A stretch of 64,000 bases of DNA, from NCBI GenBank assembly GCA_021513695.1, contig CP084166.1, positions 864,001-928,000 of the forward strand, read 5' to 3'. Below the pieces are notes generated by a model, which saw nothing but the letters and a program-made list of their open reading frames with translations, made no database searches and was not told the origin of the DNA. The position numbers and the translations under genes were made by a program. Positions 38,331 through 63,977 of this stretch are shown here, in pieces. Source of the DNA: Candidatus Heimdallarchaeum aukensis. Lineage in GTDB: Archaea > Asgardarchaeota > Heimdallarchaeia > Heimdallarchaeales > Heimdallarchaeaceae. Position 1 is the first letter of the stretch, and every line of letters starts with the position of its first letter.

Positions 38331-38688
38331 TATTGTCTGGATATATTAAGAATTTGCTTGTTTCTCATATATTTCTCAGTAAATTTTATCTTCAAAGAGC
38401 ATAAATAAACTAACGCTTTCTTAGTTTTTAAATTTAATAGCAAGTATTTTAATTTAAACTCATTATTTTTTCAATTTTTTTTTAAAAAAATTTGAAGAAT
38501 AAAATGTAAGAATGAACAAACTTAAAATTAATAATTAAATTCTGCTTCATTAAAATGCATTATTTACTATTTAAATTGTAACTAAATACATAAATACATA
38601 TATACACATATTATTGAAAATAATAAGATAACTTTAACAAACAAATTTATTACAAAAAATAAGAAAAACTTCACATTGGGGGAAATTT

Positions 38689-40309: not shown

Positions 40310-40344
40310 CTTTTTTTTAAATATTCATTAAAATCTTTTCTTTT

Positions 40345-41349: not shown

Positions 41350-41397
41350 TTTTAATAGAACATTAAATATTTATATCTATATATTATGTAACTATCA

Positions 41398-47333: not shown

Positions 47334-47463
47334 TTATATATTTCTAAAAGAGGAGATAAAATCATTGTTACGCTTACAGACAAGCTATTATGAATCGAAA
47401 TTCTCAAATGAAAGTAATATTATATGTTTTTGTCTATCTTCAATTAAATATTAAATAATTAAT

Positions 47464-48469: not shown

Positions 48470-48600
48470 TAATAATTAAATACTAAATAATAATTTAATA
48501 ATTAAATATTAAATAATAAAAAAATTTATTTTGGAATACATATTCTATTTTAATTTCTAAAAGAAAAAAATATAAAAATATTTGAATCTTTACATTAAGT

Positions 48601-49704
48601 ATGTTATCAGAAAAAGAAATTTTCCGTGAAATAAATGCTAAACATAAAAAAATTCTTATAGATCCTGAAAATTTAGATTCTTATTTGTCAAATTTTGATA
48701 AAGAAAAAAAAGATTTATTTGATCCAAAAAAACTAGAAGGTTCTAGGGTTTTAATTACCGGTATTACCGGATTTGTAGGAAGTCATTTAGCAGAGAAACT
48801 TGTAGGATTAGACTCTGATATTGATGTTTATGGTGTTGTGCGAAGACAATCTGTACCTAACTTCCCAAATATTAAACATATTGTTAATGACATAAATCTA
48901 ATAGAAGCAAATTTGATAGATTATTCTTCTTTAGAACATACTATTAATAATGTAGAACCAGACTATATTTTCCATCTAGCAGCTCAATCTTTTGTACCAA
49001 CTTCTTTTATTGCACCAATTGAGTCTGTAACAATAAACATTCAAGGAACAGTAAATTTACTTGAAATTCTTCGTAAAAGTGAAATTAATTTCAGTGGAAT
49101 TCAAGTTGCCTGCAGTAGTGAGCAATATGGACTTGTCTATCCTGATGAAGTTCCAATAAATGAGAACAATCCATTTAGACCACAATCACCTTATGCTGTT
49201 AGTAAAATAGCAACTGAAAAATATAGTTTAACTTATCATAGAGCTTATGGTTTACCAATTGTAATTACAAGAGGTTTTAATCATACAGGTCCAAGAAGAG
49301 GAATAAAGTTTGTTACTTCAGTAATCGCAAGTCAAATCGCAAATATTATTAATGGCAAAGGAAATAAGATAATAATCGGAAACCCCAAACCAATAAGAGA
49401 TTTTACATTTATTGAAGATATGATACAAGGATATATTTTATCAATAATAAAAGGAAAAAGAGGTGAGGTTTACAATCTTGGTCATGGATTTGGAATTAGT
49501 ATAGAGAATTTGATTAAACTTACTGCATCTATTTACGATGTTAGCTATGAAATTGAAATTGATAAATCAAGATATCGACCAGCAGAGGTAAACATTCTTG
49601 TATGTGATTATTCAAAAGCTAAAAAAGAACTAGGTTATTATCCACAATATTCGTTAGTTGAGACTATCAGAAAAATTGTTGAATTTTACTTAGAAAAAAC
49701 GTAA
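48601..49704 (+). CDS. gmd: GDP-mannose 4,6-dehydratase-like (Gmd family) NDP-sugar dehydratase
   Basis: RVLITGITGFVGSHLAEKL, VVRRQS, DYIFHLAAQSFV, PYAVSKIATEKY (YxxxK) and especially GFNHTGPRRGIKFVT resemble Gmd blocks (IVRRSS, YNLGAQSHV, FNHESPRRG) recalled from memory. It has a 45-aa N-terminal extension. Confidence 0.7.
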   Translation: MLSEKEIFREINAKHKKILIDPENLDSYLSNFDKEKKDLFDPKKLEGSRVLITGITGFVGSHLAEKLVGLDSDIDVYGVVRRQSVPNFPNIKHIVNDINLIEANLIDYSSLEHTINNVEPDYIFHLAAQSFVPTSFIAPIESVTINIQGTVNLLEILRKSEINFSGIQVACSSEQYGLVYPDEVPINENNPFRPQSPYAVSKIATEKYSLTYHRAYGLPIVITRGFNHTGPRRGIKFVTSVIASQIANIINGKGNKIIIGNPKPIRDFTFIEDMIQGYILSIIKGKRGEVYNLGHGFGISIENLIKLTASIYDVSYEIEIDKSRYRPAEVNILVCDYSKAKKELGYYPQYSLVETIRKIVEFYLEKT

Positions 49705-49729
49705 TCTTAAATTATAGGGTGATTTTATA

Positions 49730-50998
49730 ATGAAGTTAGAAACAGCATTGAATGAAATTAAGAATATTGTAGATATGTATTTCTCTGAAAATGATATTTA
49801 TAAAGATGAAACGAAGATAAGGCTTATTGCTCCTTCATATGGAACTAAAGAAGTGATAGAAGTAATAGAATCACTTCTTTCCACTAATGTAACAATGGGT
49901 AAAAAAGTTAGTGAATTTGAAAATATGTTTTCAACATACTTAAATGTGAAATATGGTACTATGGTAAATTCTGGTTCAAGTGCAAATTTAATAGCTCTTC
50001 AAATTTTATCAAATCCTGCTATTAGAAATAATATTAAACCTAAAGACGAAATTATTACTCCAGCTTTAACTTGGTCTACTACTGTTTTTCCAATGTTTGA
50101 TATTCATGCAGTTCCTGTATTTGTTGATGTGGATCCTAAAACTTTGACTATTGATGTTAACCAACTAAAAAGCGCTTTATCTAAGAAAACTAAGGCAATA
50201 ATGCCAGTTCATCTTTTAGGTCATCCATGTGATATGGACTACATAACAGAATTTGCTGAAGATAATTCATTGTACATAATTGAAGATTGTTGTGAAGCTC
50301 ATGGAGCAATGTGGAAAGGTAAGAAAGTTGGTAGTTTTGGTGATATCGGTACTTTTAGTTTCTTTTTTTCTCATCATATATCTACGATAGAGGGTGGGAT
50401 TGTTGTTACTAATAACGAAGAATATAATCTTTTATCAAAATCTTTGAGGGCCCATGGTTGGATTCGAGAGAGAAAAGATAGGTCGATTTTAGCTAAAAAA
50501 TATCCTTTTATCAGTGAAAAATATCTTTTTATAAATAAAGGATATAATTTAAGACCTACAGAACTTCAAGGCGCATTTGGAATACATCAAATTAAGAAAT
50601 TAGATGATTTCATTAAAATTAGAGAAGAAAATGCAAAATATTGGTTATCTGAACTTGATGAAATAAAGCATCTTATACAGTTACCAACCATTAAGAAAGA
50701 TGTTAAGCATTCATGGTTTGGTTTTCCCTTAATAGTTAAAGATGAAGCTCCATTTAAAAAAGATGACTTAATTCAATATCTTGAATTAAATAACATTGAA
50801 ACTCGTCCAATTATGTCAGGTAACATTACAGAACATCCAGCTTTAAAATATTTCAAATGGCGTAAGATCGGTAATTTGGAAGTATCCTCGAAAGTTATGA
50901 AGAATGGCTTTTTCTTTGGTAATCATCTAGGTATTAAAAACTACGAAAGAGAATTTATTGCGGAGAAAATTAGAGAGTTCATAGATTATAAAACTTAG
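49730..50998 (+). CDS. DegT/DnrJ/EryC1-family PLP enzyme with His replacing the Schiff-base Lys: ColD-like NDP-4-keto-6-deoxyhexose 3-dehydratase rather than a classical aminotransferase
   Basis: The block GSFGDIGTFSFFFSHHISTIEGGIVVTN aligns to the family consensus ...SFhgnKiittgEGG... with H at the K position, read by eye. The remaining blocks (HGWIRER, NIETRPIM) are standard DegT. Confidence 0.65.
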   Translation: MKLETALNEIKNIVDMYFSENDIYKDETKIRLIAPSYGTKEVIEVIESLLSTNVTMGKKVSEFENMFSTYLNVKYGTMVNSGSSANLIALQILSNPAIRNNIKPKDEIITPALTWSTTVFPMFDIHAVPVFVDVDPKTLTIDVNQLKSALSKKTKAIMPVHLLGHPCDMDYITEFAEDNSLYIIEDCCEAHGAMWKGKKVGSFGDIGTFSFFFSHHISTIEGGIVVTNNEEYNLLSKSLRAHGWIRERKDRSILAKKYPFISEKYLFINKGYNLRPTELQGAFGIHQIKKLDDFIKIREENAKYWLSELDEIKHLIQLPTIKKDVKHSWFGFPLIVKDEAPFKKDDLIQYLELNNIETRPIMSGNITEHPALKYFKWRKIGNLEVSSKVMKNGFFFGNHLGIKNYEREFIAEKIREFIDYKT

Positions 50999-51081
50999 AT
51001 ATCCTTTAAAATAAACTGTTAAATAATATAGAAATTTCCTAAAAAATACTTCTAACATTTTTTATTTTGTTTTTCTGCTAA

Positions 51082-51903
51082 TTATCTTTCTATAATTATT
51101 ATGTATCTTTTTCTTGTTCCTGCTTTGATTTCTATATAACCACACTCTTTTTTTTCACAAAACAACCTACGTAATTTCTCCAATTGGTTTTTGTTCATTA
51201 ATTGTAAAGTAATCAAATTAATTCTAACGTCATTATTATTCATTGCTTCATTCAGCAATTTAATAGCAAAATCTAACTCTCTCTCTCCAGCAATAAGTTC
51301 AGATTGTACTCCTTTCCACCCCCTTTGTTTTTCAAGTTTCGTCAAATCTGCAGGATAGATGGGTGGGTAACACATTAAAGCTGTGTATTTTCCTTCAGGT
51401 ACAATTTCTTTTATTATTTGCCCTTCTGATTTAATCAAAGTTATTAAGCTGCTTAATTTATTTTTCACTATATTTCTTTGTGCTAGTTGATAAGATATTT
51501 CATTTATTTCTGTAGCTAAAACTTTTCTCTTGTATTTTTTAGCGAGTAGCATTGCTATTGCTGCACTGGCTCCTGTCCCAATCTCGATTATAGGGTAGGA
51601 AAAGTTTGCAATTTTACTTGTGAGCAGTTCATTTATTGCTTCGACGTAAGCCATTCTTAGACTATAAGAAGGAATTAAGTGCCCTTTTGGTAGTTCAATA
51701 TCTAAATCTGCTAATTCTTTAAACAAGCACTTATTAAGTTCTGATAGAGTTTCAGGATCACCCAAATCAAATTTAGGAGGATTTTTGCTTATTAAGTATT
51801 TCTCCAATTTAGGGTATTTAGCAACTAATTTTTCGAATTTCATCCCTAAATGCTTAGCTTCTATAATTTTTAGTGGTTCTTTAATCATGCTTAGTCCTAT
51901 CAT
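51082..51903 (-). CDS. Class I SAM-dependent methyltransferase, RlmF/METTL16-like (N6-adenine RNA MTase type)
   Basis: SAM motif IIEIGTGASAAIAMLLAKK and an NPPF-like MCYPPIYPAD motif. Confidence 0.5.
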   Translation of the reverse strand: MIGLSMIKEPLKIIEAKHLGMKFEKLVAKYPKLEKYLISKNPPKFDLGDPETLSELNKCLFKELADLDIELPKGHLIPSYSLRMAYVEAINELLTSKIANFSYPIIEIGTGASAAIAMLLAKKYKRKVLATEINEISYQLAQRNIVKNKLSSLITLIKSEGQIIKEIVPEGKYTALMCYPPIYPADLTKLEKQRGWKGVQSELIAGERELDFAIKLLNEAMNNNDVRINLITLQLMNKNQLEKLRRLFCEKKECGYIEIKAGTRKRYIIIIER

Positions 51904-52102
51904 TTACTAACTATATAATAATCTAGTTATATTTTGGCTAACTAATTTTTTAACAATAAAGGCTTGATAAAAATCCTCTCATTTTTCATAGTTAATATAT
52001 TGAAAATACCAAAAATGCAACAATTTTTTGAACACTAAAAAAGAGTACAAATTAATTTGAAAAAAAAATATTAATTAGAAATAAAAAGTGAAGAAAGTAA
52101 AG

Positions 52103-53059
52103 TTAAATTTTTGCTTTTGATCTAAAAGGTAATTTAGCAGAAATAGCTTTCCAATCCATGATAAAGTATTCTATTACCAAATCAATAACTAGTACAATAA
52201 TAGAAACTATACCAACCAAAGGAATAGTACTGAAAAATCCTAGAGCAAAATAAGTTGCCAGGTAGAGTAAATGAAAACTTGTAAATAAAGCAAAAGGAAG
52301 AATATTAGTTATTTTTTCGATTCTAAAATGTCCCGCAAAAATAGAGATTAGTATAACTGTTAAAGCAATAAAAACAAACAACAGAACAAGATAAAACCAA
52401 TACCAAACAACAATTATTCCTTTAGCAAGAAGAAATAGATTAAAGCGATAAGTTCCTTCAAAAGCTAAATAAAGAGGAATGTAACCCAAAAAAGGAACAA
52501 TTAAGTGATAAACAATTACAAGTAAATTTACTTTGTCTCTCCAAATTTTACGCTCTAAACGTAGTATAGAACTGAAAATTAAAACAATAAAAAACCAACC
52601 CATGTAATTAGTCCAAATAACACCAAAGTAAGTAAGAGGAGAAATATAAGTAGGCAAACCATATCCCCAATCCCAAAATCCACCATCAATTCTAATAGCA
52701 ATAGCATCCATAGTTAGATCAAGTGTTAAAGCTAACAAAGTGTCTAAAAAAGGGCGAGATATAGGATGCAAACCAAAATGGTCAGTAGTATCCATTGAAC
52801 AGGTAATAATCATTGCCCAACAAAAAGCAACAACTAATGGGACATTGTTGGGAGCACGACCAAACTGTAATAGAAAAAGAGTTGAATAGTGATAACTGTC
52901 ATATAAGAAGATACTCAGATACTCAATACTCAAACCAAATAAAGTAGCGGAAAGGAAATTCAACAAACGAGACCATCGCTTAAGAAAAATAAATCTGACT
53001 AGAAATACAAGATAAAGGACTTCAAAATAAATCTCAAAAAAATAAGTAAGCCAAACCAT
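52103..53059 (-). CDS. Polytopic membrane protein, unknown function
   Basis: 318 aa, 8-9 hydrophobic segments, W/Y/F-rich, no assignable motif. Confidence 0.4.
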   Translation of the reverse strand: MVWLTYFFEIYFEVLYLVFLVRFIFLKRWSRLLNFLSATLFGLSIEYLSIFLYDSYHYSTLFLLQFGRAPNNVPLVVAFCWAMIITCSMDTTDHFGLHPISRPFLDTLLALTLDLTMDAIAIRIDGGFWDWGYGLPTYISPLTYFGVIWTNYMGWFFIVLIFSSILRLERKIWRDKVNLLVIVYHLIVPFLGYIPLYLAFEGTYRFNLFLLAKGIIVVWYWFYLVLLFVFIALTVILISIFAGHFRIEKITNILPFALFTSFHLLYLATYFALGFFSTIPLVGIVSIIVLVIDLVIEYFIMDWKAISAKLPFRSKAKI

Positions 53060-53285
53060 TAAGTATTAAAAGAGAGTTTTTTAAAAAAACCTTTTGGGTA
53101 TAGTAAAAAATAGCAAGGGAAAACAATAATTCTAAACATGTTTATGTTATGTTTTCTTGCGTCAAAAGTAGATGGAATAACAATTAGAGTTATTGGGTAT
53201 TTAATTTATAACATATTTCCAAGATAGCTCTTGTTTGGCTAATTTAAAAAACTGTAAATCTATTTGGTGTAAATTACATAACAGC

Positions 53286-53930
53286 TTAAATTTTCTTTGA
53301 TATTGCGTAAGCAGTATATCCTCCAAATGCACTATTAACTAACAACCAAGGTAAACCAAAGTAAGCTATGCCTAGAAACGAACCAGATCCTGTTTGGGGG
53401 TTGACATAAAAAAATGTAAGAGCTACGAGTGTTAGTATAAAATTAGTTAGTCCCATAATTATTCCAGTCAATATTGTACGATTACGCAGATTTAGGTTTG
53501 AGGGAAGAAACTTAAATGAAAGATCTGCTGAAAAACCTGTTGCCAGTCCAAAAACGCACCAACCTACCACTGCCCAAGGACTTACTAAAGACTTTGTTTT
53601 TATCAACTCGTAATAATATTCTACAAAGAAACCAATTATTGCATAAGGCAAATATATTGCTGTTCCCATTCCAAACTGTCTTATTTTAAGAATAGGTAAG
53701 ATAATTATTAGTGCATTAAAATAACCTACCATATATACAAAAAACATTCCTGTTCCTTCTATCTCGCCCATTTTACCGAATCCTACTGTTGCACTTCCTG
53801 CAAAAAAGTCAAAGAAGTATGTTCCTATAGCTGTTACTGTGGATTGTAGGAATCCAAAAATGAGTATAATTTGCCATACTTTTATTTTTTCTTTTTTTTC
53901 TGGTTGTGTAATTCTATCTTTTTTTCTCAT
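53286..53930 (-). CDS. Small 6-TM membrane protein, ECF-transporter S-component-like (tentative)
   Basis: 214 aa. The size and glycine-rich TM pattern resemble substrate-capture components. No ATPase or T component is nearby. Confidence 0.3.
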   Translation of the reverse strand: MRKKDRITQPEKKEKIKVWQIILIFGFLQSTVTAIGTYFFDFFAGSATVGFGKMGEIEGTGMFFVYMVGYFNALIIILPILKIRQFGMGTAIYLPYAIIGFFVEYYYELIKTKSLVSPWAVVGWCVFGLATGFSADLSFKFLPSNLNLRNRTILTGIIMGLTNFILTLVALTFFYVNPQTGSGSFLGIAYFGLPWLLVNSAFGGYTAYAISKKI

Positions 53931-54355
53931 TTTATCTTACTTTTTATTTTTTTTCTAATAAGTTGTTAGTTTTTAGCTTTTTCCAACTTTTTATTTTTGT
54001 ATAAATATCTTTGATTTGTTTCTTGTTGTTTTTTATAATGTGAGATTATCTTTCATCAGTTAGAATCTAGTTGTTGTTTTCACAAATGGTTTTTTTTACA
54101 ACATGGGGTTCTTTTAGTTCTTGATTGTTTCAATTTTCTTTTTTTTTAGAAAAACTTTAGTGATAATTATTACTTGAGAACTTTTGTTTCTAGTTTTTTT
54201 ATAGTTGATTTAAGCGATAACCTATTATTGATTTTACTGCATTTCCTTCTTTCTCTTTTTTCCATAATTATTCTTTGACTAGTAGAATAGTATTCTTTTT
54301 ATTCTCTAGTTTAGCTATTTTACTCAGTAAGCATCGCTTTAGGAGAAGTGTAGGA

Positions 54356-55588
54356 ATGGAAGAAAGTAAAGACTACTTTTACGACATCCAATTAGATAAA
54401 AAAAATTCTTTAAATAATCAAATGAGAGAAACTCTTCAATCCTTTATTAATTCATTTCCTTTCTATGTTATGCTTATTGACGAGGATCATCACATTCAGC
54501 TTGCTAACAACGCTATCTTAGACCAATTGAAAATGGATCCTACTGCTATTGTTGGTTGTTATTGTCCTTCCAAAATTCACGGTTTAGATTCTCCTTTTGC
54601 TGGTTGTCCTCTTGAAGCATCTAAATCTTCTCTTAAAGCTATTGAACGAGAATATTATTTTAAAGAAGAAGACAGGTGGGTTCGCTCTACTGCTTATCAT
54701 ACTAATATTTTTACTCCTGAAAACAAACGTCTTTTTATTCATCTTACTATTGACATTACTGCTCAGAAGAATGCTGAAAATAAATTGAAGCGTTCTGAGG
54801 AGAAGTATCGTCTTCTTGCTTCTAAATTACAAAAGCTTAATGATTTACATAAGAAATTGAATGAGATCCAAGAGATTTTTATTTACGAACGAGATAAGAC
54901 TTCTTTAATTCATCGTATATGTTCAAAGTTGTCAGAACTTATTAGTTATGATCTTTGTTGGATAGGTATTTTAGATTCAGGTAAGTTAAAGATTTTGGCT
55001 AGTTCTAGTTCTGATTCTGATTCTGGTTCTAGTTCAAGTTCTAGAATTAAAGACTTTTTTACTACTGAAATTGACCTTCATTCCGATGGTCGTTATTCTT
55101 GTTTACATAAGGTTATTGAGCAAAAACAATTAATTGTTATTAACAAGGATAATTTTTCTTGTTCTGATTGTCTATTCCACGACACTTCTTCACCTAATTC
55201 TATCTTAATCTTTCCTATGATTGTTAACGACAATGTTTATGGTATTATCAGTTTATATAAGTCTGAGAGTCACATCTCTGAAAACGAGATATCTATTTTA
55301 CAGACTGTTGCTAATGCTTTAGCTTTTGCTCTTCAATCTATTGAATTAATTGAAAGTCAGAATGAAGCTTTTTCTCAGCTTAAGAGAAATATTGATTATT
55401 TAGAAGATATAATCGATAAAATTAGAAATCCTCTTACTGTTATTCAAGGTTTCGTTGAACTTTATATGAAAGATAAAAGCAGTGCAGCTATCATTAAAGA
55501 ACATATTAACCAAATTGTAGAGATTCTTTCTAAAGTTGACGAAAAATATATTCGTTCTACTGACTTATTCAAACAGTATACTGAATAA
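54356..55588 (+). CDS. PAS plus GAF domain sensor protein without recognisable kinase or output domain
   Basis: The ORF track starts at 54275; the likely start MEESKDYFY at 54356 is preceded by aggagaagtgtagga. A PAS-like N-terminal half (FPFYVMLIDEDHHIQLANNAIL...GCPLEASK...TIDITAQKNAE) is followed by a coiled linker and a GAF-like C-terminal half. It is a paralog of 61883-63076. Confidence 0.6.
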   Translation: MEESKDYFYDIQLDKKNSLNNQMRETLQSFINSFPFYVMLIDEDHHIQLANNAILDQLKMDPTAIVGCYCPSKIHGLDSPFAGCPLEASKSSLKAIEREYYFKEEDRWVRSTAYHTNIFTPENKRLFIHLTIDITAQKNAENKLKRSEEKYRLLASKLQKLNDLHKKLNEIQEIFIYERDKTSLIHRICSKLSELISYDLCWIGILDSGKLKILASSSSDSDSGSSSSSRIKDFFTTEIDLHSDGRYSCLHKVIEQKQLIVINKDNFSCSDCLFHDTSSPNSILIFPMIVNDNVYGIISLYKSESHISENEISILQTVANALAFALQSIELIESQNEAFSQLKRNIDYLEDIIDKIRNPLTVIQGFVELYMKDKSSAAIIKEHINQIVEILSKVDEKYIRSTDLFKQYTE

Positions 55589-55864
55589 ATAATTTTAACT
55601 TTCTTTTGCAGCTCTATTATAGTTAACAGTCTTAACAATTAATTTATTTTGTCTGTACTTATGATTTTTACTTTTTATGTTTCTTACCTGTTGAAGAGAT
55701 AAGAAAACATTTGAACATTAGTAATAATGTAAATGGTTCTATAGAAAAATCTCTATTTACGCTTGAGATTTAAATGAATTAAAAAACTCTTTTCAAATAT
55801 CTCAAATTTACTTAAATATTTCTAAGCTTTGATTTTTTGGAGTAAACCTCGATTTAATTTTTTA

Positions 55865-56068
55865 CTATCCTTCTGTTATCTTTCGCTTTTTGACCTTTGT
55901 GATTTGAATAGTTCCATCATAAAAAAGTATCCATCTAATTTTATCTCCATTTTTAAGTTCTAGAGCTTCCACAATCTCTTTTGGGACAGTTGTTCTTCTC
56001 CTACTTTCGCGTATTGTCAATGTTGTTTCTGTTACAAATTCTACTTCGTCTAAATCTACTTTTGGCAT
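55865..56068 (-). CDS. AbrB/MazE/SpoVT-type swapped-hairpin DNA-binding protein
   Basis: 67 aa. TVPKEIVEALELKNGDKI fits the looped-hinge helix motif (v.IPkeiRe.lgikeGD.l). No partner toxin ORF was found on either side. Confidence 0.55.
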   Translation of the reverse strand: MPKVDLDEVEFVTETTLTIRESRRRTTVPKEIVEALELKNGDKIRWILFYDGTIQITKVKKRKITEG

Positions 56069-56276
56069 GTTTATGTGATTAATTTATAACATATATATTT
56101 TTTGGTTGTAATCCAAACTGTTTTGCTAATAAGATAATTAATGTTATCAGAACACATACATGTATTGTCAATTTTTATTCGTCACAAGAACTATCTTATA
56201 CTCCACATTACATTGGTGTGACGTAATACTTATATGGACAATTACCAATGGCCATCAAAACAAGGATAGTGAGATA

Positions 56277-57221
56277 ATGATGGATGCTATTACAACCTTT
56301 TCATTTGGATTATATCTTTTATTTGCATTTATAGCTTTAATTTGTGAATATATTGATTCAGCTTTAGGTGGGGGATATGGAACTATTCTTGTTCCTGTAA
56401 TGATGATCGCCTTTAATATTGATAAGAAATTCCTTATTCCTGCTGTTCTTGTCAGCGAGACAGTCACTGGTCTTGGTTCAGCATTGCTTCATCATTATGT
56501 AGGCAATGCGAATTTTAATATACGAAAAAAGAATAATTCAAGTGAATTCAATAAAACAAATGATATTCTAAAGAGATACAATTCTCCATCTAGTATAATT
56601 AAAGAAAACGGTTACTGTCAAAATTTCTTCTATAGATCTCTAATTACTCGTGCTAAAGATTTTCTTAATAGTTTTAAGGTTTCAGACGACTTTAAAGTTT
56701 CAATGATTTTAGGTTTCTTTGGTATTATTGGTGGCATTTCAGCTGCTTTTCTTTCTTTAAGATTATCTCAAACTTTTGTCAAGATATATATTGGAGCACT
56801 TGTCTTTTTAGTCGGTTTGTTTGTTTTAATAGGTTTCAAATGGAAATTCACGTGGGTTAAAATCTCCATTATTGGTCTAGTTGCAGCGTTTAATAAAGGT
56901 TTATCAGGTGGAGGATATGGACCTCTTATTTCCTCAGGTCAGATTGTTGTAAACCGCAATCCTCGCCAAGCTGTTGCTTCAACTTCACTAGCTGAAGCTT
57001 TAGTATGTATCTCTTCCTTGGTTGTTTATTTTTCTTGCCCAGAAATTACCTTTAATTTTGGTTTCTTGTTTCTCTTACTTTCTCTTTTTATAGGAGCAAC
57101 CCTTTCTGCTCCTCTAGCGGTTCTAACTGTAAAGTATATACCACTTAAGAAAATGCAACCAATTGTTGGACTTGTAACCATGTTATTAGGAATTTTTACG
57201 TTGGTTAAGGTCTTCATTTGA
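56277..57221 (+). CDS. TauE/SafE (DUF81) family anion exporter (sulfite/sulfonate-type permease)
   Basis: Two internal repeats each carry the G-rich signature (ALGGGYGTILVPVMM and GLSGGGYGPLISSGQ), separated by a long hydrophilic loop. The start is taken at 56277 (the ORF-track ORF begins earlier at 56160). Confidence 0.6.
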   Translation: MMDAITTFSFGLYLLFAFIALICEYIDSALGGGYGTILVPVMMIAFNIDKKFLIPAVLVSETVTGLGSALLHHYVGNANFNIRKKNNSSEFNKTNDILKRYNSPSSIIKENGYCQNFFYRSLITRAKDFLNSFKVSDDFKVSMILGFFGIIGGISAAFLSLRLSQTFVKIYIGALVFLVGLFVLIGFKWKFTWVKISIIGLVAAFNKGLSGGGYGPLISSGQIVVNRNPRQAVASTSLAEALVCISSLVVYFSCPEITFNFGFLFLLLSLFIGATLSAPLAVLTVKYIPLKKMQPIVGLVTMLLGIFTLVKVFI

Positions 57222-57665
57222 AACAAATTTTTATTAATTATTTTATTTTCAGCAAAAGTTCTCTTACTTCAGGTGGGGATAGTTCATACTGCAATTTTCA
57301 CTTTTCACTTGGTGGATACAAAAAGCGAAATAGTAAATTAGTAAAGTAAAAGCAAATAAAACTAGACTTCTTCACTAAAGAATATGATATACTAAATCTC
57401 TATACTCTATTCTCTTCTCTTCTCTTTTCTTTTCTTTTCTTTTCTTGGTTGTATGCATGACTTATTTTTTTACGTAAGTTTGTAAAAATTGAATTGAGGG
57501 AGGAGTGAATGTAAAAAAGAAAAAAGAAAAAAGAAAGGAGGAAGGGAGAAGAGAGGAAAATGAGGGGTTTTTATAAGGAAAAAAGGTATAAGTAAGTAAG
57601 AAGAGAAGAAGAAAAGTAAAAAAAAGAAAGAAAAAAAAAGAAAAAAAAGGAAGGAGTAAAGAAGG

Positions 57666-59126
57666 ATGGAGGGCGTCGTTAAAACCTTGAAAGTGAGAAT
57701 AAAGAATGAGGTGTTGACGACTAGAAAAAAGCTAAGGTTAAGGAGAATAACGGGGAGAGACACAAGGATTATAGAAAAGTATGTGAGAATAATACACCAT
57801 AACAGAAGAAAGATATGTATACGAACCAAAAAAGGGAAAATAAGAGTACATAGAGGAAAATTAGATGAGTTGACGCTTACTACTTCAAAAGTTAAAGAAG
57901 AAGAGATGAGAACGACTGTTCCTCACGACCTTAAGAAAATGTTTCCTTACTGTTCTCACAATGAGTTTCAAGAGTGTAGAGATATAGCTGTGCAACTGTA
58001 CGAGCAAGGATATCGACCCAGTTCTAAACGTCCTCTCATAAAGAGAGTAAGAAGGCAACTAATTAATGGAAAAAGATTCATCCTTGTTCATCTACCAAAA
58101 GAAAAGAATAACACTCTTACTCGTTGGTGGGTGGGAATAAGAGACTCGTTAGACACGTGGAAAAGAAATACCCCCTACCATCAGAAGTTGTGGTTACCTT
58201 TAGAGATAAGCACTTTTCATCAGAAAGAGTTGAAAAAAGGACAAGTGAAAAGCCTAGAATTAAGATATAAGCATTCTACACGTGAGTGGTGGGTGTATTT
58301 TCAACTAAAAGTTCTCCCTCCTTCTTCTTTTCTAAGCGATAATTCCTCTTCTTCTTCTCTTCCTCCAGCTGTGCTGGGAATAGATCTGGGGATAAACATT
58401 CCAGGTGCAGGAGTGCTTCTAGCCCCTAAAAAGAAGTTAACTATTAAAGAGATAAAATTCTGGTATACCAAACAGTGGAATAAATTTAATCATAGATATA
58501 AACTTAAACTTTCCCGTCTTCAGAGGAAAGCGGCTTTAAATGACCAGTCGGGTAAAAAACACCAAATTTATCGTTTTCTTGGATATCTTCGAAGAAGATA
58601 TAGAAACGTTAAACGAGCCTATATTCACCAATTTGTAAGCGATATTGTGCGGACAATAGAGAGTTATGCGCAAGTGTATGATCTTTTTGTCGTCGTAGGT
58701 TACCCCAAAAATGTTAGAAAAGGAAAAGGAAAAGAAAAAGGGAAAAGTAAAAGTACTCGTTATTTTCGCAGAAAACTTCATCAGTGGAACTATGCTCATG
58801 TTCTTGGTCTTCTCCGTCGAGCATTGATATTAAGAGGTTTTGCTCCTCACCGCATTCTTATAATAGACGAAAGAGGAACATCTTCTCATTGTTCACGTTG
58901 TGGAAAAGAAGTTTCTCGTCCCGTCAGAGGGTTAGTCTCTTGTCCCTCTTGTAACTATACCTTCCACTCTGATTTAACAGGAGCTAGAAATATTGCTCTT
59001 AAGTTCCTTAGTCATCTTTTTCGTCCCCGTGTTACAACTATTACTGATTACTTTACTGGTCAAAAATTCAGTCTTACCCATTACACTGTTTGCCGAGGGC
59101 TCAGCCATTGGTTGCAGTCCCAGTAG
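57666..59126 (+). CDS. tnpB: TnpB (OrfB_IS605) RuvC-like RNA-guided endonuclease
   Basis: RuvC-I GIDLGINIPGAG, RuvC-II IIDERGTS, the zinc finger CSRCGKEV...CPSCNY and RuvC-III HSDLTGARNIAL near the C-terminus. The N-terminal half matches the OrfB_IS605 wedge/REC-like region. Confidence 0.85.
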   Translation: MEGVVKTLKVRIKNEVLTTRKKLRLRRITGRDTRIIEKYVRIIHHNRRKICIRTKKGKIRVHRGKLDELTLTTSKVKEEEMRTTVPHDLKKMFPYCSHNEFQECRDIAVQLYEQGYRPSSKRPLIKRVRRQLINGKRFILVHLPKEKNNTLTRWWVGIRDSLDTWKRNTPYHQKLWLPLEISTFHQKELKKGQVKSLELRYKHSTREWWVYFQLKVLPPSSFLSDNSSSSSLPPAVLGIDLGINIPGAGVLLAPKKKLTIKEIKFWYTKQWNKFNHRYKLKLSRLQRKAALNDQSGKKHQIYRFLGYLRRRYRNVKRAYIHQFVSDIVRTIESYAQVYDLFVVVGYPKNVRKGKGKEKGKSKSTRYFRRKLHQWNYAHVLGLLRRALILRGFAPHRILIIDERGTSSHCSRCGKEVSRPVRGLVSCPSCNYTFHSDLTGARNIALKFLSHLFRPRVTTITDYFTGQKFSLTHYTVCRGLSHWLQSQ

Positions 59127-59400
59127 ATAAAAAAGTTCCTTTCTTTTATATCAAGGGATAGGTTCTTTTTTGTCTCTCGTGGAGTGAAGAAAGAAAAAGT
59201 TCTTTTCTTCTTTATGATTCCCATGATTCGTGTATGAGGTCTGTCTCAACCCCTCCCATTCATTGTATTATTGGTTGAGTTCGCAAGAGATCAAACTTTC
59301 TCCTTGCTTGTTTTTTCTCTTGAAAGACTGAGTGCGAAAAACTTACGTAAAAAAGTAAATCATAATCTCTTAATTTGTTAATAACCACACTTATCATTCA
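59127..59400 (+). ncRNA. Candidate omega-RNA (reRNA) region at the 3-prime end of the tnpB element
   Basis: Known TnpB systems transcribe a guide RNA that overlaps the tnpB 3-prime end and the right end of the element. This stretch has elevated GC and stem-forming segments, e.g. gttgagttcgcaagag...ctccttgcttg. Extent and strand are inferred, not demonstrated. Confidence 0.3.
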
Positions 59401-59466
59401 TTCAAGTTGTCTAATAAATGCCTATAGAAATACTCTTTAAGTGATGTTGTTAGATTTTATTTACTT

Positions 59467-60027
59467 ATGCATTTTGTAATTATTTTTGGTCCTCCTGCTG
59501 TTGGTAAAATGTCTGTTGGTAAAGAACTAGCCAATATTACCGGTTTCAAATTATTTCATAATCATATGTCTATTGAACTCGTTTTGACTCTTTTTGATTA
59601 TGGTACTCCTGAATTTAAGCAACTGAATTCTTCTATCCGCAGATTAATTTTCGAAACTGTTTCTTCTAGTAACTTAAGTGGTTTTATTTTTACTTTTGTT
59701 TGGGCTTTTAACATCCCTGAAGATAAACAATATGTTGAATTTGTTTCTGAAATTTTCAGAAAGAATAATTGGAAAGTTTATTTTGTTGAATTACAGTGTA
59801 GTCTTCAAGAGCGTTTAAGAAGAAATAAAACTGAAGAACGATTAAGAGAAAAACCTTCCAAACGCTCAATTAAAGAATCAGAGCAAAGGTTATTGGAGTG
59901 CGAAAAAAAATATGTTTTAAACACTCAGGGAGATTTTTATTTTCCTGAAAAATATATTAAAATTGATAATACTTCCCTTTCTGCTATTGAAGTAGCGGAG
60001 AGAATTAAGAGTTATTTCAACTTTTAA
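59467..60027 (+). CDS. P-loop NTPase/small-molecule or nucleotide kinase-like protein (AAA_33-like) with atypical Walker A (GPPAVGKM)
   Basis: MHFVIIFGPPAVGKMSVGKELA, then a lid-like basic region. 186 aa. Family placement is tentative. Confidence 0.4.
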   Translation: MHFVIIFGPPAVGKMSVGKELANITGFKLFHNHMSIELVLTLFDYGTPEFKQLNSSIRRLIFETVSSSNLSGFIFTFVWAFNIPEDKQYVEFVSEIFRKNNWKVYFVELQCSLQERLRRNKTEERLREKPSKRSIKESEQRLLECEKKYVLNTQGDFYFPEKYIKIDNTSLSAIEVAERIKSYFNF

Positions 60028-60314
60028 GTCGTATAGTATTTTATTGTGTGTTCTTTGCTATTTTTACTATTTTTTATAGTTACTAATTTTTTTCTCAAGT
60101 GTTATTTTTCTTGTTCTTTCAGGTTTGGAAGATTTGTTTATTAGGATCCTTTATTTCATACAGTTGATTTTTTCTAATAAACTATCAAGTGTAAGGAAAA
60201 CAACTAATTCAATTTAATCAAATAAATTTTCTTTAGCTTCTGACTCTTCTCTTATTCTCAAAATTCTCATTTTTTTAACTAAAAACTTTTAAGATTTATT
60301 CAGATAATAACTAT

Positions 60315-61418
60315 ATGGGTCAACTTAACAAACCCCTTGAGCTATTAACCACCTTAAGCAACCATAATGGTTCTATTTCATCTATTAGAGCTGATAAAAC
60401 TTATCTTTACTCTGGTTCGAAAGATGATACTTTAAGAATTTTTAAAAAGAGTAGTTGGGAAGAGGTTACTTCTTTAGTTCATTCGTCTTGGGTTAATTGT
60501 ATAGAAGTAGACACTGAAAAGGTTTACTCTGGCTCTAGTGATTCAACTGTTCGAGTTTGGAAAAAAGGTTCCTGGGGTTTAATTTCTTCCATTAAACATT
60601 CTCGTTTTTCTATTGTTAAAGACATTGCCGTTGATAAAGAGCACTGCTATGTTGTTCTAACTGATCGCTCTTTGATTATCTATTCTAAACAAAAGTTTGT
60701 TGAACAGGATAAACTTACTCATACTGGCATAGTTCAATCAGTAGAGGTTGATAACACTAATATTTATTCATCTCTAAGCGATGGAACAGTTGTTATCTGG
60801 ACTAAGAATAATTACGAAGTGGAGAAAGTATTAACTCTTTCTTCTTTTAAAACAGTAGAACAGCTGGAAATAGATAATGCTTACATTTATACTTCTGTTG
60901 GCAAGAACATTAAAGTTTTTGATAAGAAAAAAAAGGAAGTGGTTAAAGAATTAAAAATCAACAAAGGTATAGTTTCTTTAACAGTCGACGACTCACTTTT
61001 ACTTGTAGCTTCTAAAGACAAGAAAGTTTACATGTGGAAGAAAGAAACATACAAAGAATACTCTCCTCTAATTATTGATAAAGCAATTACTTATATCTAT
61101 TCTGACAATGAATTTATTTATGTGGGTTGCAAAAATGGAGAAATAAAGATTTATACCCATCCAATAAAAAGAAAAACTATAAAAAAACAACCAACAAGAA
61201 CAAAAAAGGTTACTAAAAAAGCTGAAAAAGCCCAAAAAACAGAAGAGCCTATTAAAAAAACTAAAGAAGATAAAAAAGAAAAGAAAAAATCAAAGGATTA
61301 CACTGTCAAAGAAGCAAAAGAGCTTATGAGTAAAATGAGCAATGAAGAGATACTAGAGTTTACAGAAGGAGATAAAAGAGTAACAATACAGAAATATCGA
61401 GAAAAAGAACAAAAATAA
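60315..61418 (+). CDS. Seven-bladed WD40-type beta-propeller protein with a about 90-aa lysine-rich (histone H1/HMG-like) C-terminal tail
   Basis: Seven ~40-aa repeats end in motifs such as TLRIFKKSSWEE, TVRVWKKGSWG, TVVIWTKNNYE, KVYMWKKETYK and EIKIYTHP. The tail reads KKQPTRTKKVTKKAEKAQKTEEPIKKTKEDKKEKKKSKD. Confidence 0.6.
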   Translation: MGQLNKPLELLTTLSNHNGSISSIRADKTYLYSGSKDDTLRIFKKSSWEEVTSLVHSSWVNCIEVDTEKVYSGSSDSTVRVWKKGSWGLISSIKHSRFSIVKDIAVDKEHCYVVLTDRSLIIYSKQKFVEQDKLTHTGIVQSVEVDNTNIYSSLSDGTVVIWTKNNYEVEKVLTLSSFKTVEQLEIDNAYIYTSVGKNIKVFDKKKKEVVKELKINKGIVSLTVDDSLLLVASKDKKVYMWKKETYKEYSPLIIDKAITYIYSDNEFIYVGCKNGEIKIYTHPIKRKTIKKQPTRTKKVTKKAEKAQKTEEPIKKTKEDKKEKKKSKDYTVKEAKELMSKMSNEEILEFTEGDKRVTIQKYREKEQK

Positions 61419-61882
61419 CTATTTTGCTTTTTTTCTTCTAACACCTTTTTATTTCTTTAATTTTAATATTGGCTATTTTCTTAAATTAGAAAAATAATAC
61501 ATTTTCATAAAGGAAGAAAAGCAGAAATTGACATTGTAATAAAGACTGGCTTCAATTTAACCGTAGTTTCTGTAACAACAAGTAGAACAATAGGTTTGAT
61601 TAAATTAAAACTGTTTGAAGTTCTGCATGTTCTCTTAACCCAGTCCTCACAACTTTCGATATGTTTGTTGACCGGTTGGGTAGAGTCCTGAAGAAATTAA
61701 GTAAAATTTCAACTCATGGAACAAATCAAATTGGAGGAATTCATTCAATGGTTGTTTTGGTCACATTATTGGAAAAATAGCAAGTAGAACAGCTAAAGAG
61801 AGATATCTCTGTTTGAGTTAAAAAATAGAATAAAAATTGTAGGAAAAGAAAAAATAGGTAAGTTATCTGAAATATTACACGT

Positions 61883-63076
61883 TTAAGGTTGATTATACAT
61901 ATCTTGCTCTTTTAGCATTTTTGTTGTTTCTTTATATTTTTTATCTATTTTTTTCATTTTTTTAATAATTTTGTCTATTTGTTCGCGAAAAAGTTGATAC
62001 ATTCCATTTGTTTCGAATTTTAAATCGCTCATTCCTTTCATTACCGTTAAGGGATTTACTATTTGGTCTAGTAATTCTTCTAGTTCTTTTTTGTTCTGTA
62101 ATAATTGGTTTAGCGCTTTTTCTCTTTCTTCGTTAATTTCCAGCATTTCTATGGAAAAACCTAATTCGTTCGCTATTGTGCTAAGAATCACTTCTTCATG
62201 TTCAAAGAACTCTTCCCGTTCTGTTAATAATACCATTATCCCAAATTGTTTCTGTGCTGCGAACATTGGAATAATGACTATATAGCGTGGAGTTTTTCTC
62301 TGTAAAATTGTTGAAGGTACAGCAAGTTCTCTTGCAGAAAAAATTGCATTCTGGTCAAGTTTTACTTTTCTGTTCAATTTATCTAAAAAATTGTATAACT
62401 CTTGTTTTTCTACTTCAGTCAAGTGAGGTCTTGAATTGAGCAATTCTAGCTTTTCATCTTTTTTTCTCAAAATAAAACAATATGTGTAATCGCGGAACTT
62501 ACTTAGTTCTCTAGAGATTGTATCAACCAATACTTGTTTATCTTTAATGTAAATTAGTTTGTTTTGCACAGAAACAGTTACTTTTCCTAACTCGTATATT
62601 TTTTCCAGTTTTTTGGAAAGAAGTTCGAACTTTTCACTTGCTTCAATTAGTTTTTCCTCAGCAAGTTTTCTTTTGGTTATATCAACAGTATAACAAATAA
62701 AGACTCTTTTTCCTTCGTATGTGTAAAAGTTGCTAAAATAAACTCCTGAAATCAACCAACTTTTTTCACCGTATTTGATCTCTCGTTGCACATTTTTTGA
62801 AATCGCTATAGCTTTTTCCAATGGACATCCGCGAAATAGATTATTGACCCCGTGAACAAGATGAGAACAATATCTTCCTATAATTTGTTTTTTTTCTAAA
62901 CCCAATTTTTTTTGGAAAATATCATTAACTAACAGTATGTTATGCTTTTCATCTACTAAAATTATTGGATAAGAAAAACTATCTATGAAACTCTGGATTA
63001 TTGCTATACATTCTTTTGTTAGAATAATTTTCTCTTTTGGTAAACTTACTGGAAAAGTAACATCTTCTCTAATCAT
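61883..63076 (-). CDS. PAS plus GAF domain sensor protein (paralog of 54356-55588), no output domain
   Basis: Shares blocks with the other copy: F[PS][FY][YP]...L[IV]DE.H.I.L.N....GCPLE....ITKRK/ITAQK...plus a coiled linker, and C-terminal ...NPLTV[MI][QK]G... It has host-like NNA codon usage. Confidence 0.6.
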   Translation of the reverse strand: MIREDVTFPVSLPKEKIILTKECIAIIQSFIDSFSYPIILVDEKHNILLVNDIFQKKLGLEKKQIIGRYCSHLVHGVNNLFRGCPLEKAIAISKNVQREIKYGEKSWLISGVYFSNFYTYEGKRVFICYTVDITKRKLAEEKLIEASEKFELLSKKLEKIYELGKVTVSVQNKLIYIKDKQVLVDTISRELSKFRDYTYCFILRKKDEKLELLNSRPHLTEVEKQELYNFLDKLNRKVKLDQNAIFSARELAVPSTILQRKTPRYIVIIPMFAAQKQFGIMVLLTEREEFFEHEEVILSTIANELGFSIEMLEINEEREKALNQLLQNKKELEELLDQIVNPLTVMKGMSDLKFETNGMYQLFREQIDKIIKKMKKIDKKYKETTKMLKEQDMYNQP

Positions 63077-63131: not shown

Positions 63132-63977
63132 TTATCTTTTGCCTTTGAATTTTTTCTTTTTTCTTCTAACCATTAAAAGTACAAAACTTAGAGTTGCAAA
63201 AAAACCTAAATAGACTATCAACTCAAGAGCTGTTGGTTTGTCTTGATAACCAAATAACGATCTTAAGAATCGCCCTATTTCTGTATTTTTATCATCTATA
63301 AATCCACTAGTATCCCATAACTGTTTTTGTAGCCAATATGTTTCTGGCCCAAACCAGTTTATTTCTTGTAGTTCATGTATTCCATAAGTAAACATTCCTG
63401 CAGCAAAGAAAACTAGAAGAATACCTGTTGTTATGAAAAAAGCTTTTATGTTTATTCTCTTTCCTGATAGGAAAACTAAAGCAGCTACTATCAACGCTAC
63501 AACTAGACCTAATACCCCTGACCAAAGCATAGTAAAATAGTTTCCTTCTATTGCTTCTACTCCTGATAGAAACAGAACTGTCTCTACTCCTTCTCTTAGG
63601 ACAGAAAAAACTGTTAATAATAACACCCCGTATTTCTTGCTCTCTTCTAATGTTTGGTCAACCTTTCTTTCTAATCCTTCTTTTATTTTTGACCCCTCTG
63701 AGCTCATCCAGATTATCATCCAACCTAATAGGAGTGAAGCAATGATCATTGTAAAACCTTCAAATATTTCTTCATATCCGCTAAACCCACCTAGTAATAG
63801 TTGGAATAAGACTGCGAAAACGATTGATAGGACTATTCCTATTACCGTTCCTACCCATATCTGTTTTTTCAACTTTCTTTGCTCTATTTTAGAAACATAA
63901 ACTAAAAGTATTCCTACTATTAAAGCAGCTTCCAGAACTTCTCTGAAAGTTATTAGAAAACTGGCTGTGCTAAACAT
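63132..63977 (-). CDS. FTR1/EfeU-family high-affinity iron permease
   Basis: Two RExxE motifs in TM helices, FREVLEAALIVG and LREGVETVLFLSG. About 7 TM, 281 aa. Confidence 0.75.
   Translation of the reverse strand: MFSTASFLITFREVLEAALIVGILLVYVSKIEQRKLKKQIWVGTVIGIVLSIVFAVLFQLLLGGFSGYEEIFEGFTMIIASLLLGWMIIWMSSEGSKIKEGLERKVDQTLEESKKYGVLLLTVFSVLREGVETVLFLSGVEAIEGNYFTMLWSGVLGLVVALIVAALVFLSGKRINIKAFFITTGILLVFFAAGMFTYGIHELQEINWFGPETYWLQKQLWDTSGFIDDKNTEIGRFLRSLFGYQDKPTALELIVYLGFFATLSFVLLMVRRKKKKFKGKR

Follow-up and report, generated by a model that had tools for sequence, protein, structure and literature searches.

The window analysed in this work is a stretch of 64,000 nucleotides (nt) of Candidatus Heimdallarchaeum aukensis (CP084166.1). 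Towards its right end, an initial annotation made from the letters alone had singled out a block, positions 53931-61882, as an island of plus-strand genes that use a codon dialect of their own and look acquired as a unit. The block carries genes for a PAS-GAF sensor, a small AbrB-like protein, a TauE/SafE-family permease, a TnpB, a P-loop kinase-like protein and a WD40 protein, and the proteins of the region are identical to the consecutive H. aukensis entries UJG41585-UJG41594. The closed H. aukensis genome was published with its sister species, Heimdallarchaeum endolithica, the two sharing 88% average nucleotide identity (ANI) and 90% average amino-acid identity (Wu et al., 2022; PMC8813620). 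We compared the block with the H. endolithica locus at CP084167.1:1010344-1030904 (hereafter L008), with a third lineage (L014), with a fourth, metagenomic one (L018) and with two closely related contigs from metagenome-assembled genomes (L016 and L017); the metagenome scan yielded one extra lineage only. The window as a whole is AT-rich (GC content per kb of 0.20-0.38), and neither a tRNA gene nor a match to an Rfam family was found in its 64 kb. The features between 52 and 64 kb are as follows.

52103-53059, minus strand: polytopic membrane protein (UniRef name: carotenoid biosynthesis protein), no homolog in L008
53286-53930, minus strand: membrane protein gene of the left flank, with which the skewed domain described below begins, T/(T+A) 0.33
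53931-54355, no strand: divergent spacer, the most T-rich of the window; cross-lineage homology begins inside it, at 54242-54251 (blastn breakpoints)
54242-57458, plus strand: left conserved sub-block (PAS-GAF, AbrB, TauE and spacers), delimited by identity to L008, L014 and L018
54356-55588, plus strand: PAS-GAF-DHp sensor protein without ATPase domain (Pfam GAF_2 8e-13, HisKA 3.7e-7, PAS_4 1e-3)
55865-56068, minus strand: SpoVT/AbrB (MazE/PrlF-like) small DNA-binding protein (Pfam MazE_antitoxin 2.3e-8)
56277-57221, plus strand: TauE/SafE-family permease (Pfam TauE 7.9e-22)
57409-57446, plus strand: pyrimidine microsatellite (TCTTT-like) just left of the insertion point of the next feature; its length differs among H. 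aukensis, H. endolithica, L014 and L016/L017
57459-59363, plus strand: TnpB-only insertion sequence (IS) of ~1.9 kb, with an empty site in relatives
57666-59126, plus strand: tnpB gene, divergent RNA-guided-nuclease family (Pfam Cas12f1-like_TNB 2.7e-10)
59127-59363, plus strand: non-coding 3' part of the IS, with blocks conserved in three copies; candidate scaffold of a guide (omega) RNA
59364-61494, plus strand: right conserved sub-block (kinase, WD40 and spacers), missing from some closely related contigs (L016 and L017)
59467-60027, plus strand: small P-loop NTPase/kinase-like protein (Pfam AAA_18 8.7e-5, a weak match)
60315-61418, plus strand: WD40 beta-propeller protein with a lysine-rich C-terminal tail (Pfam WD40 1e-18; WD40 matches in the PDB)
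61488-61856, plus strand: degraded Csx1/CARF-PDDEXK remnant, interrupted by an insert of ~85 nt at 61628-61714
61883-63076, minus strand: PAS-GAF paralog, 32% identical to 54356-55588 and absent from the H. endolithica locus
63132-63977, minus strand: FTR1-family permease (Pfam FTR1 8.7e-49)

Pfam agrees with the domain content that the initial annotation had read from the block, and the combination of genes corresponds to no known cassette, as had also been proposed. In the PAS-GAF protein the HisKA match scores 30.5 bits (residues 356-394 of 410), and no HATPase_c domain was found with Pfam; the neighbouring paralog is built alike. The protein thus has the DHp domain of two-component sensor histidine kinases but not their catalytic HATPase_c domain. 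The paralogy of the two PAS-GAF genes had been recognised correctly (E = 3e-58), and the 61883 gene finds only the PAS-GAF ortholog in L008. Homologs of the PAS-GAF protein occur in Heimdallarchaeaceae only, among them those of two lineages at 88% and 79% identity and an ortholog at 57% on a 9.8-kb contig from a metagenome-assembled genome, and a contig search with the paralog as query returned only two distant Brocadia PAS proteins. The AbrB/MazE-like protein has an antitoxin-like fold, but no toxin-like open reading frame (ORF) adjoins its gene as it would in a type II toxin-antitoxin module. The kinase-like protein has 2020 homologs across archaea and bacteria at 55-67% identity and no close relative among solved structures. 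Plasmids of Bacillus and Priestia carry AAA-family ATPase genes that share 76-79% of their nucleotides with the 5' end of its gene (59466-59606), the bacterial homologs being ~55% identical overall as proteins. The lysine-rich tail of the WD40 protein, which had been likened to histone H1, matches no family, linker histone included. The genes of the block are separated by spacers of ~200-450 bp, with one gene on the opposite strand, and we see no evidence of a mechanism in which the five block genes would act jointly.

We measured codon preference as the ratio T/(T+A) at four-fold degenerate codon families only, a preference that amino-acid composition cannot mimic. The baseline consisted of 55 genes outside insertion sequences, taken from 1-52 kb of the window and from L009 and L010, two unrelated loci of H. 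endolithica that were reached via their TnpB copies and include the housekeeping genes LeuRS, CDC48, prefoldin and TldD. The ratio has a mean of 0.497 in this baseline, with a standard deviation (SD) of 0.076 and a range of 0.31-0.68, and significance was assessed with a beta-binomial model fitted to the 55 genes. The plus-strand genes of the block do prefer T-ending codons, as had been claimed, and the compositional anomaly is real but very uneven. PAS-GAF reaches 0.90 (111 T, 12 A, 4 C, 0 G; P = 3e-10) and the kinase 0.86 (P = 1.4e-5), followed by WD40 at 0.70 (P = 4e-3) and TnpB at 0.68 (P = 6e-3), and TauE, between two extreme genes, is marginal at 0.62 (P = 0.05). The initial annotation had named uniform codon statistics as an outcome that would speak against it; ratios of 0.62-0.90, set against 0.50 ± 0.08, are far from uniform.

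Other codon choices shift along. CGN codons make up 51% of Arg codons in the plus-strand block genes against 22-30% in the baseline, TCN codons 80% of Ser codons against 70%, and ATT and ATA are used 85 and 20 times, against a ratio of ~1.3:1. The first axis of a principal component analysis (PCA) of codon usage, with 29% of the variance, opposes NNT and CGT codons to NNA, AGA and TTA, and PAS-GAF is its extreme point in both species. The anomaly is not a shift in GC content, which at 0.30-0.33 is the same in the block as in housekeeping genes. The tetranucleotide comparison that had been suggested as a check turned out not to discriminate, the bulk distance being only mildly raised (z = +0.6 to +2.4). 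A strand-symmetrised dinucleotide distance does set the block apart (102, against 49 ± 16 and a maximum of 92 for random segments): AT is low, and AA/TT, AG/CT and GA/TC are high. The AT-poor, AG/CT-rich pattern is also present in the flanks and is stronger in the IS. Because a local segregation of purines and pyrimidines would alter the same dinucleotides, this distance is not independent evidence of a foreign origin.

The picture of a one-strand dialect changes once the minus-strand genes are taken into account. Not every gene of the block lies on the plus strand, as had been stated: the AbrB/MazE-like gene is on the minus strand, and its codons are A-ending (0.23). So are those of the minus-strand flank genes, with 0.33 for 53286, 0.39 for the PAS-GAF paralog and 0.40 for FTR1, the last two being individually non-significant (P ~0.1). 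Since each A at the end of a minus-strand codon faces a T on the plus strand, the flank genes carry the same plus-strand T excess as the block. The paralog, which had been assigned to a host dialect, follows the same asymmetry. The use of TTA for Leu that had been described for the flanks amounts to only 18-41% of Leu codons there. Pooled four-fold frequencies of T/A/C/G are 0.66/0.21/0.09/0.03 in the plus-strand block genes, 0.30/0.53/0.09/0.09 in the four minus-strand genes and ~0.43/0.43/0.07/0.07 in the baseline. The spacers had been described as T-rich, which is clearly so for 53931-54355 and 60028-60314, with T/(A+T) of 0.70 and 0.64, but 57222-57480 and 59127-59466, with 0.58 each, are at the top of the background (0.40-0.60). 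On average, spacer T enrichment is ~0.58 here and in L008, against ~0.47.

In a sliding count along the plus strand, T/(T+A) at four-fold sites runs between 0.31 and 0.61 up to 52 kb and between 0.65 and 0.78 from 52.5 kb to the end of the window. There is thus a step in neutral-site skew at ~53 kb and no compositional boundary at 61.5-61.9 kb, so that of the two borders drawn by the initial annotation the left one is roughly right (~53.2-54.2 kb) and the right one has no compositional counterpart. What lies here is a skewed domain, from ~53.2 kb to the end of the window, in which the plus strand is rich in pyrimidines, above all in T and slightly in C, at weakly selected sites whatever the orientation of the genes. 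Its length is at least 11 kb in the H. aukensis window and at least 16 kb in H. endolithica. Across the loci of both species, none of the 16 plus-strand genes falls below 0.61 and none of the nine minus-strand genes exceeds 0.54. Elsewhere the plus strand shows no such bias, with ratios of 0.45-0.50 in 1-51 kb of the window and in L009 and L010; the preference for T at third positions in all plus-strand genes genome-wide, which had been put forward as the alternative to an island, is not what we see.

Two candidates for the origin of the skew were set aside. A replication origin in the spacer at the step (53931-54355) appears unlikely, given how little of this spacer H. aukensis and H. endolithica have in common; the window holds no Orc1/Cdc6 gene. 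Translational selection for high expression was rejected because the genes are regulators and transporters and because the minus-strand genes are biased in the opposite direction. Our literature searches for codon usage or strand skew in Asgard archaea turned up no relevant work.

The block does not look like a unit that H. aukensis acquired recently. L008 holds these five genes as well, with order and orientation unchanged and with 95.0% nucleotide identity between L008 6704-9885 and window 54242-57426 and 92.1% between L008 9895-12022 and window 59361-61494. The left sub-block is 95.7% identical to L014 and 91.5% to L018. The bias is shared as well: T/(T+A) in L008 is 0.89 for PAS-GAF, 0.24 for AbrB, 0.62 for TauE, 0.83 for the kinase and 0.69 for WD40, and PAS-GAF in L018 has 0.90. 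The claim that the block was newly acquired as a unit thus finds no support in its strong form, the same order and bias being found in H. endolithica, at the same locus, and in two further lineages. Relative to H. endolithica, dN/dS is 0.19-0.27 across the five genes (0.19 for PAS-GAF), which argues that all five are functional and under purifying selection. AbrB is 99% identical at the nucleotide level between the two species.

Divergence from H. endolithica is mosaic: compared over 54242-60064 and WD40, dS is 0.02-0.15 for PAS-GAF, AbrB, TauE and the kinase and 0.31 for WD40. Low values are not limited to the most biased genes (0.08-0.15) but also occur in AbrB and in TauE, whose bias is weak. 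Identity to L014 is 98.7% in the kinase region, against 95.7% in the left part. This mosaic suggests recombination between lineages. The gene that precedes PAS-GAF, of 403 amino acids (aa) in H. endolithica, has its acidic C-terminal part (L008 6411-6638) tandemly duplicated in L018 (positions 1-204 and 217-467).

Outside 54242-61494 the two species differ, yet each retains remnants of the other's flank genes. H. endolithica keeps the 5' end of 53286 and the sequence upstream (L008 1179-1272 resembles window 53880-53976, 97 bp, at 82%) and a C-terminal remnant of FTR1 (L008 14117-14302, matching residues 215-276 at 87%). Conversely, the H. aukensis remnant at 61488-61856 is 49% identical by tblastn to residues 313-406 of an H. 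endolithica protein of 418 aa that matches PADLOC Csx1 (3.5e-39) and is encoded intact next to Cas6, Cas3 and Cas5d; the remnant is inverted relative to the intact gene. The ~85-nt insert in it has a higher GC content than its surroundings. The remnants in both species place the block at the same chromosomal position, with remodelled flanks (same locus, DIFFERENTIAL erosion). In keeping with a domain that extends beyond the shared genes, plus-strand neighbours found only in H. endolithica, with no homolog in the window, are also T-biased (0.61-0.79), the minus-strand genes of that locus have 0.24-0.54 and its spacers average ~0.58. The methyltransferase gene at 51082-51903 is inverted relative to H. 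endolithica. In L016 and L017, position 57459 is joined to 61715 (L016 ~2561-2564, L017 ~2365-2368) at a CATG microhomology, and 57460-61714 is missing, that is, the IS, the kinase, WD40 and the first half of the Csx1 remnant; this deletion begins exactly at the H. aukensis IS insertion point. CRISPR-Cas loci of Heimdallarchaeum are reported to be variable and mobile (Wu et al., 2022; PMC8813620).

TnpB had been counted as part of the island. It belongs instead to a separate, multicopy IS, as three relatives illustrate: H. endolithica (L008) and L014 have a clean empty site, and L016/L017 are without the IS inside their larger deletion. The element is a separate insertion into the spacer between TauE and the kinase that followed the split of H. 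aukensis and H. endolithica. Its ends are 25-nt inverted repeats (57457-57481 and 59339-59363, 92% complementary), ATGACTTATTTTTTTACGTAAGTTT and AAACTTACGTAAAAAAGTAAATCAT, each of which contains TTACGTAA. All three copies, in the window, in L009 (~9842-11699) and in L010 (~9833-11705), have CAT at both junctions, which looks like a duplication of 2-3 bp of a fixed target. The L009 and L010 copies are 82-85% identical to that in the window, the GC content of the IS is 0.38, and the TnpB protein belongs to family clusters of 31 and 18 member sequences whose names come from H. endolithica and H. aukensis.

The tnpB gene scores 40.7 bits against PF07282 (cut-off 26.3) and 77.6 bits against the NCBIfam model guided_TnpB, below its cut-off of 100; the C-terminal zinc ribbon (CxxC...CxxC) and the RuvC-III motif D..ARNIA align to Cas12f structures. 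An RNAalifold fold of the 3' non-coding region has seven compensatory pairs, from three sequences only, and no Rfam family matches it. We found no second ORF with a transposase domain (TnpA) in the IS and noticed no autonomous partner with the same 25-nt ends in the sequences examined. With the TnpB-only (IS1341-like) members of the IS200/IS605 group the element shares an ORF with TNB/zinc ribbon and RuvC-III and a conserved 3' non-coding end with a predicted fold; like IS200/IS605 elements it is multicopy in both genomes, is precisely inserted and has CAT next to its left end. Canonical IS200/IS605 elements have neither inverted ends nor target duplications. The IS described here differs from them in its 25-nt inverted ends and CAT at both junctions, as well as in its lack of TnpA and its NCBIfam score below the cut-off, and its RNA-guided activity is a prediction only.

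The searches for traces of integration that the initial annotation had called for came back empty. Neither Pfam nor NCBIfam revealed an integrase or recombinase at an end of the block among all ORFs of 51-64 kb, the nearest rve gene being that of an IS at 43.3 kb, and a search for attachment (att) repeats around 54.2 and 61.5 kb returned only low-complexity repeats. No viral relatives were found in IMG/VR, where three proteins were scanned, nor any match in a phage collection; plasmids gave only a match of 110-140 nt between the kinase 5' end and Bacillaceae genes. The block is also absent from the mobilome FASTA of the genome paper (PMC8813620). Of the usual marks of a genomic island, the block therefore has the atypical codon and dinucleotide composition and lacks the integrase, the tRNA gene or att sites and the mobile relatives. 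Nor is it present or absent as a unit: it occurs in H. endolithica, L014 and L018, and only 57460-61714 is lost in L016/L017.

The assembly was likewise examined as suggested. The Logan contig L001 is 100% identical to the window over 48442-57486, across the left border, and the independent short-read contigs L002 (59334-61655) and L004 (61689-64295) are 100% identical too, so that nearly all of the rest is covered. Between 61655 and 61689, where the short-read contigs of two samples end, 33 nt (61656-61688) are without cover, all of them inside one gene remnant. The closure of the H. aukensis genome used both long and short reads (PMC8813620).

Any explanation has to accommodate the bias and its strand symmetry, the conservation and synteny of the block, the separate IS and the flank remnants. 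The best reading, which we hold tentatively, is that the domain is a relic of old flexible-genome or foreign DNA, present before the species split and eroded since, whose foreign origin we infer. The segment at 54.2-61.5 kb is a conserved, functional five-gene part of the chromosome and would lie within a recombination-prone flexible region, next to a CRISPR-Cas locus that H. aukensis would now have lost. The skew would be the un-ameliorated signature of old foreign or flexible DNA whose genes were co-oriented and whose composition differed between the strands, and its acquisition would predate the divergence of H. aukensis and H. endolithica. Lineage-specific erosion would have followed, by deletions, a probable inversion, IS activity and some recombination between lineages, and the TnpB IS entered the spacer between TauE and the kinase later and independently. 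Mobile DNA of these archaea offers some parallel: IS genes elsewhere are T-biased in any orientation (0.63-0.78), and the first 6.6 kb of the published virus-like element FWV0001 have ratios of 0.56-0.68. The distinct dinucleotide signature of the block, shared by its flanks and stronger in the IS, also leans towards this reading, with the reservation made above. The locus also resembles the flexible islands described in these genomes (Wu et al., 2022; PMC8813620) in its atypical composition, variable flanks, adjacent Cas genes or their remnants, IS activity and mosaic divergence; it differs from them in that its core block is conserved in four lineages under purifying selection and that its anomaly is one of strand asymmetry.

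Several observations weigh against such a relic. The integrase, tRNA gene, att repeats, plasmid or viral genes and mobilome entry that would betray a mobile origin are all absent. A single donor signature does not predict ratios of 0.90, 0.62 and 0.86 in neighbouring genes. The PAS-GAF gene at least looks native, its family being confined to Heimdallarchaeaceae and its paralog lying adjacent. The gene at 52103-53059 has a ratio of 0.74 on the minus strand (P = 5e-4), a polarity opposite to that of the adjoining domain; a local inversion, to which the inverted methyltransferase gene next to it points, may reconcile the two. A second sample of the mobilome file consisted of heterogeneous, GC-richer, unrelated elements, so that the comparison with mobile elements comes down to the IS genes and one element, and the baseline covers ~100 kb rather than whole genomes. 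Finally, substitutions polarised with three lineages are balanced, 20 A->T against 18 T->A overall and 3 against 4 at four-fold sites (29 events, 7 of them A/T transversions), numbers that are too few to decide the matter. A balanced A/T flux, small as the counts are, is at least as compatible with a steady state that is being maintained as with a relic in decay.

This last point leads to the alternative that fares next best, an ongoing, strand-asymmetric mutational process at this locus, from purines to pyrimidines and mainly A to T on the plus strand, under which all resident DNA drifts alike. Candidates for its cause are the direction of replication forks near an unrecognised origin, terminus or barrier, persistent one-way transcription, and R-loops. 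Such a process would explain why the sign of the skew is the same for either gene orientation, for spacers, for the two species and for genes that they do not share, and would account for the sharp step at ~53 kb and for a balanced A/T flux despite a T:A ratio of 3.5:1 at four-fold sites. An ortholog of the kinase in another AT-rich Asgard archaeon, 66% identical and with different neighbours, has a ratio of 0.46; the bias is thus a property of this locus or lineage rather than of the gene family, which suits a local process as it does a relic. In the Csx1 pseudogene, changes relative to H. endolithica run from purine to pyrimidine in 19 cases and the other way in 10, a test that is confounded by the loss of coding constraint. 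Regional pressure does not, however, predict adjacent genes at 0.62 and 0.90, and ~100 kb of other sequence are nearly without skew. The usual replication asymmetry is an excess of G+T, and an A-to-T transversion with C at least as frequent as G fits neither this nor deamination. With no Orc1/Cdc6 gene in the window, a spacer at the step that is mostly unconserved and substitution counts that are too small, and as we know of no precedent in archaea for a strand-asymmetric process this local, we regard this explanation as unlikely, though a serious contender.

The comparison with known skew domains is similarly mixed. As in replication- or transcription-associated domains, genes of either orientation and spacers are skewed alike and the change is abrupt, at ~53 kb, and as in skew jumps left by an inversion or insertion, the gene of opposite polarity (52103) adjoins one whose orientation is reversed in the sister species. 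The domain differs from replication skew in being confined to 10-20 kb rather than a replichore, in reaching up to 0.9 T, in varying between adjacent genes and in being an excess of T and C, that is, of pyrimidines, rather than the usual G+T, with no origin genes nearby. Skew of comparable magnitude, as a replichore-scale effect would produce, is not seen at the other loci (~100 kb). Put more generally, a domain of 10-20 kb that is actively held at steady state, whether by local purine-to-pyrimidine mutation, mainly A to T, or by selection for T-ending codons in signalling genes, appears to us rather doubtful; to our knowledge, neither kind of domain has been described in archaea.

Ordinary gene-to-gene scatter, with the extreme genes adjacent by chance and no common cause, is improbable. 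The baseline is indeed over-dispersed relative to a binomial (SD 0.076), the genes at 61883 and 63132 have P ~0.1 and TauE is marginal, but against scatter stand P values of 3e-10 and 1.4e-5 in two genes, the separation of 16 plus-strand from nine minus-strand genes, and spacers that shift likewise.

Selection on synonymous codons in individual genes comes out as quite improbable. G34 tRNAs decode NNT codons, U34 tRNAs decode NNA codons, and regulators might use NNT codons to respond to, or escape, changes in the pools of tRNAs or tRNA modifications. NNT against NNA is the main axis of codon variation, with extremes on both strands, PAS-GAF is held at 0.89-0.90 in three lineages, 52103 is T-biased on the other strand and dS is 0.08-0.15 in the most biased genes. 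Such selection would leave the A-ending minus-strand genes and the T-rich spacers unexplained, dS is also low in TauE and AbrB, the kinase ortholog of the other AT-rich Asgard archaeon is unbiased, and the block genes are not plausibly highly expressed.

The proposal from which this work started, a one-unit island, integrated element or provirus-like module of ~7.5 kb (53931-61882) acquired by H. aukensis, now seems very improbable. It would explain the distinct codon usage, and the shared block (54242-61494) nearly coincides with the proposed borders, with flanks that differ between species and an identity of 92-95% that exceeds the genome-wide ANI of 88%. Against it stand the same gene order in four lineages, flank remnants that mark the same locus, the later arrival of TnpB, AbrB on the other strand, a compositional shift that continues past 61.9 kb, the lack of integrase, att sites and tRNA genes, and the loss of the kinase-WD40 pair on its own. 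Lastly, an assembly chimera joined at ~53.9 kb and 61.5-61.9 kb, for which only the 33 nt without independent contig cover could speak, is next to inconceivable given three contigs at 100% identity, a gap inside a single remnant both halves of which match the same H. endolithica gene, the presence of the block in a second closed genome, the closure of the H. aukensis genome with long and short reads (PMC8813620), which implies long reads across 53-64 kb, and a contig stop that fits a graph branch from a co-occurring deletion variant.

Elsewhere in the window, three insertion sequences interrupt a large region of surface-glycan biosynthesis at 1-51 kb, which contains glycosyltransferases, sulfotransferases, flippases, a dTDP-rhamnose pathway and an Eco57I-type gene. 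Two copies of a DDE_Tnp_1 IS (~40314-41372 and 47443-48501) contain 100%-identical blocks and differ by a 1-nt indel that splits the ORF of the second. Between them lie ~6 kb with an rve-type IS, an epimerase and two GT4 glycosyltransferases, much as in a composite transposon. Just left of the first copy lies a truncated DegT fragment (39736-40095) with 77-79% identity to 49730-50998. The gene at 19537-21450 encodes an FG-GAP/beta-propeller protein of 637 aa and contains seven tandem 135-nt repeats (20104-21048, 66-76% identical). Three stretches, 1-1961, 34688-35740 and 36791-38688, have no ORF of at least 100 aa; two of them have a GC content of 0.30-0.32, above that of typical spacers, and may hold gene remnants. 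The Eco57I-like gene (window 22127-24004; L008 1-168, 44% aa identity) abuts the Methyltransf_10 gene (51082-51903; L008 180-980, 62%) in H. endolithica, and the two are 27 kb apart in H. aukensis with glycan-biosynthesis genes between them, which suggests that the glycan segment of 24-51 kb is the lineage-specific part of the region in H. aukensis.

If the domain is indeed a relic, it adds one more compositionally atypical patch to the flexible genome of Asgard archaea, and its value is mostly cautionary. What looks like a foreign codon dialect on one strand can be strand asymmetry, and a host baseline taken from the rest of a window need not be valid. The locus also documents erosion beside a Heimdallarchaeum CRISPR-Cas locus, where genes survive as remnants, an inversion and the insertion of an IS have taken place and a deletion begins at that IS. 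The inverted ends and possible short target duplication of the TnpB element may interest those who work on the evolution of TnpB and Fanzor, its Heimdall host belonging to the archaeal group closest to eukaryotes. If the skew were instead actively maintained, it would point to a local regime of mutation or codon selection that has yet to be described in archaea.

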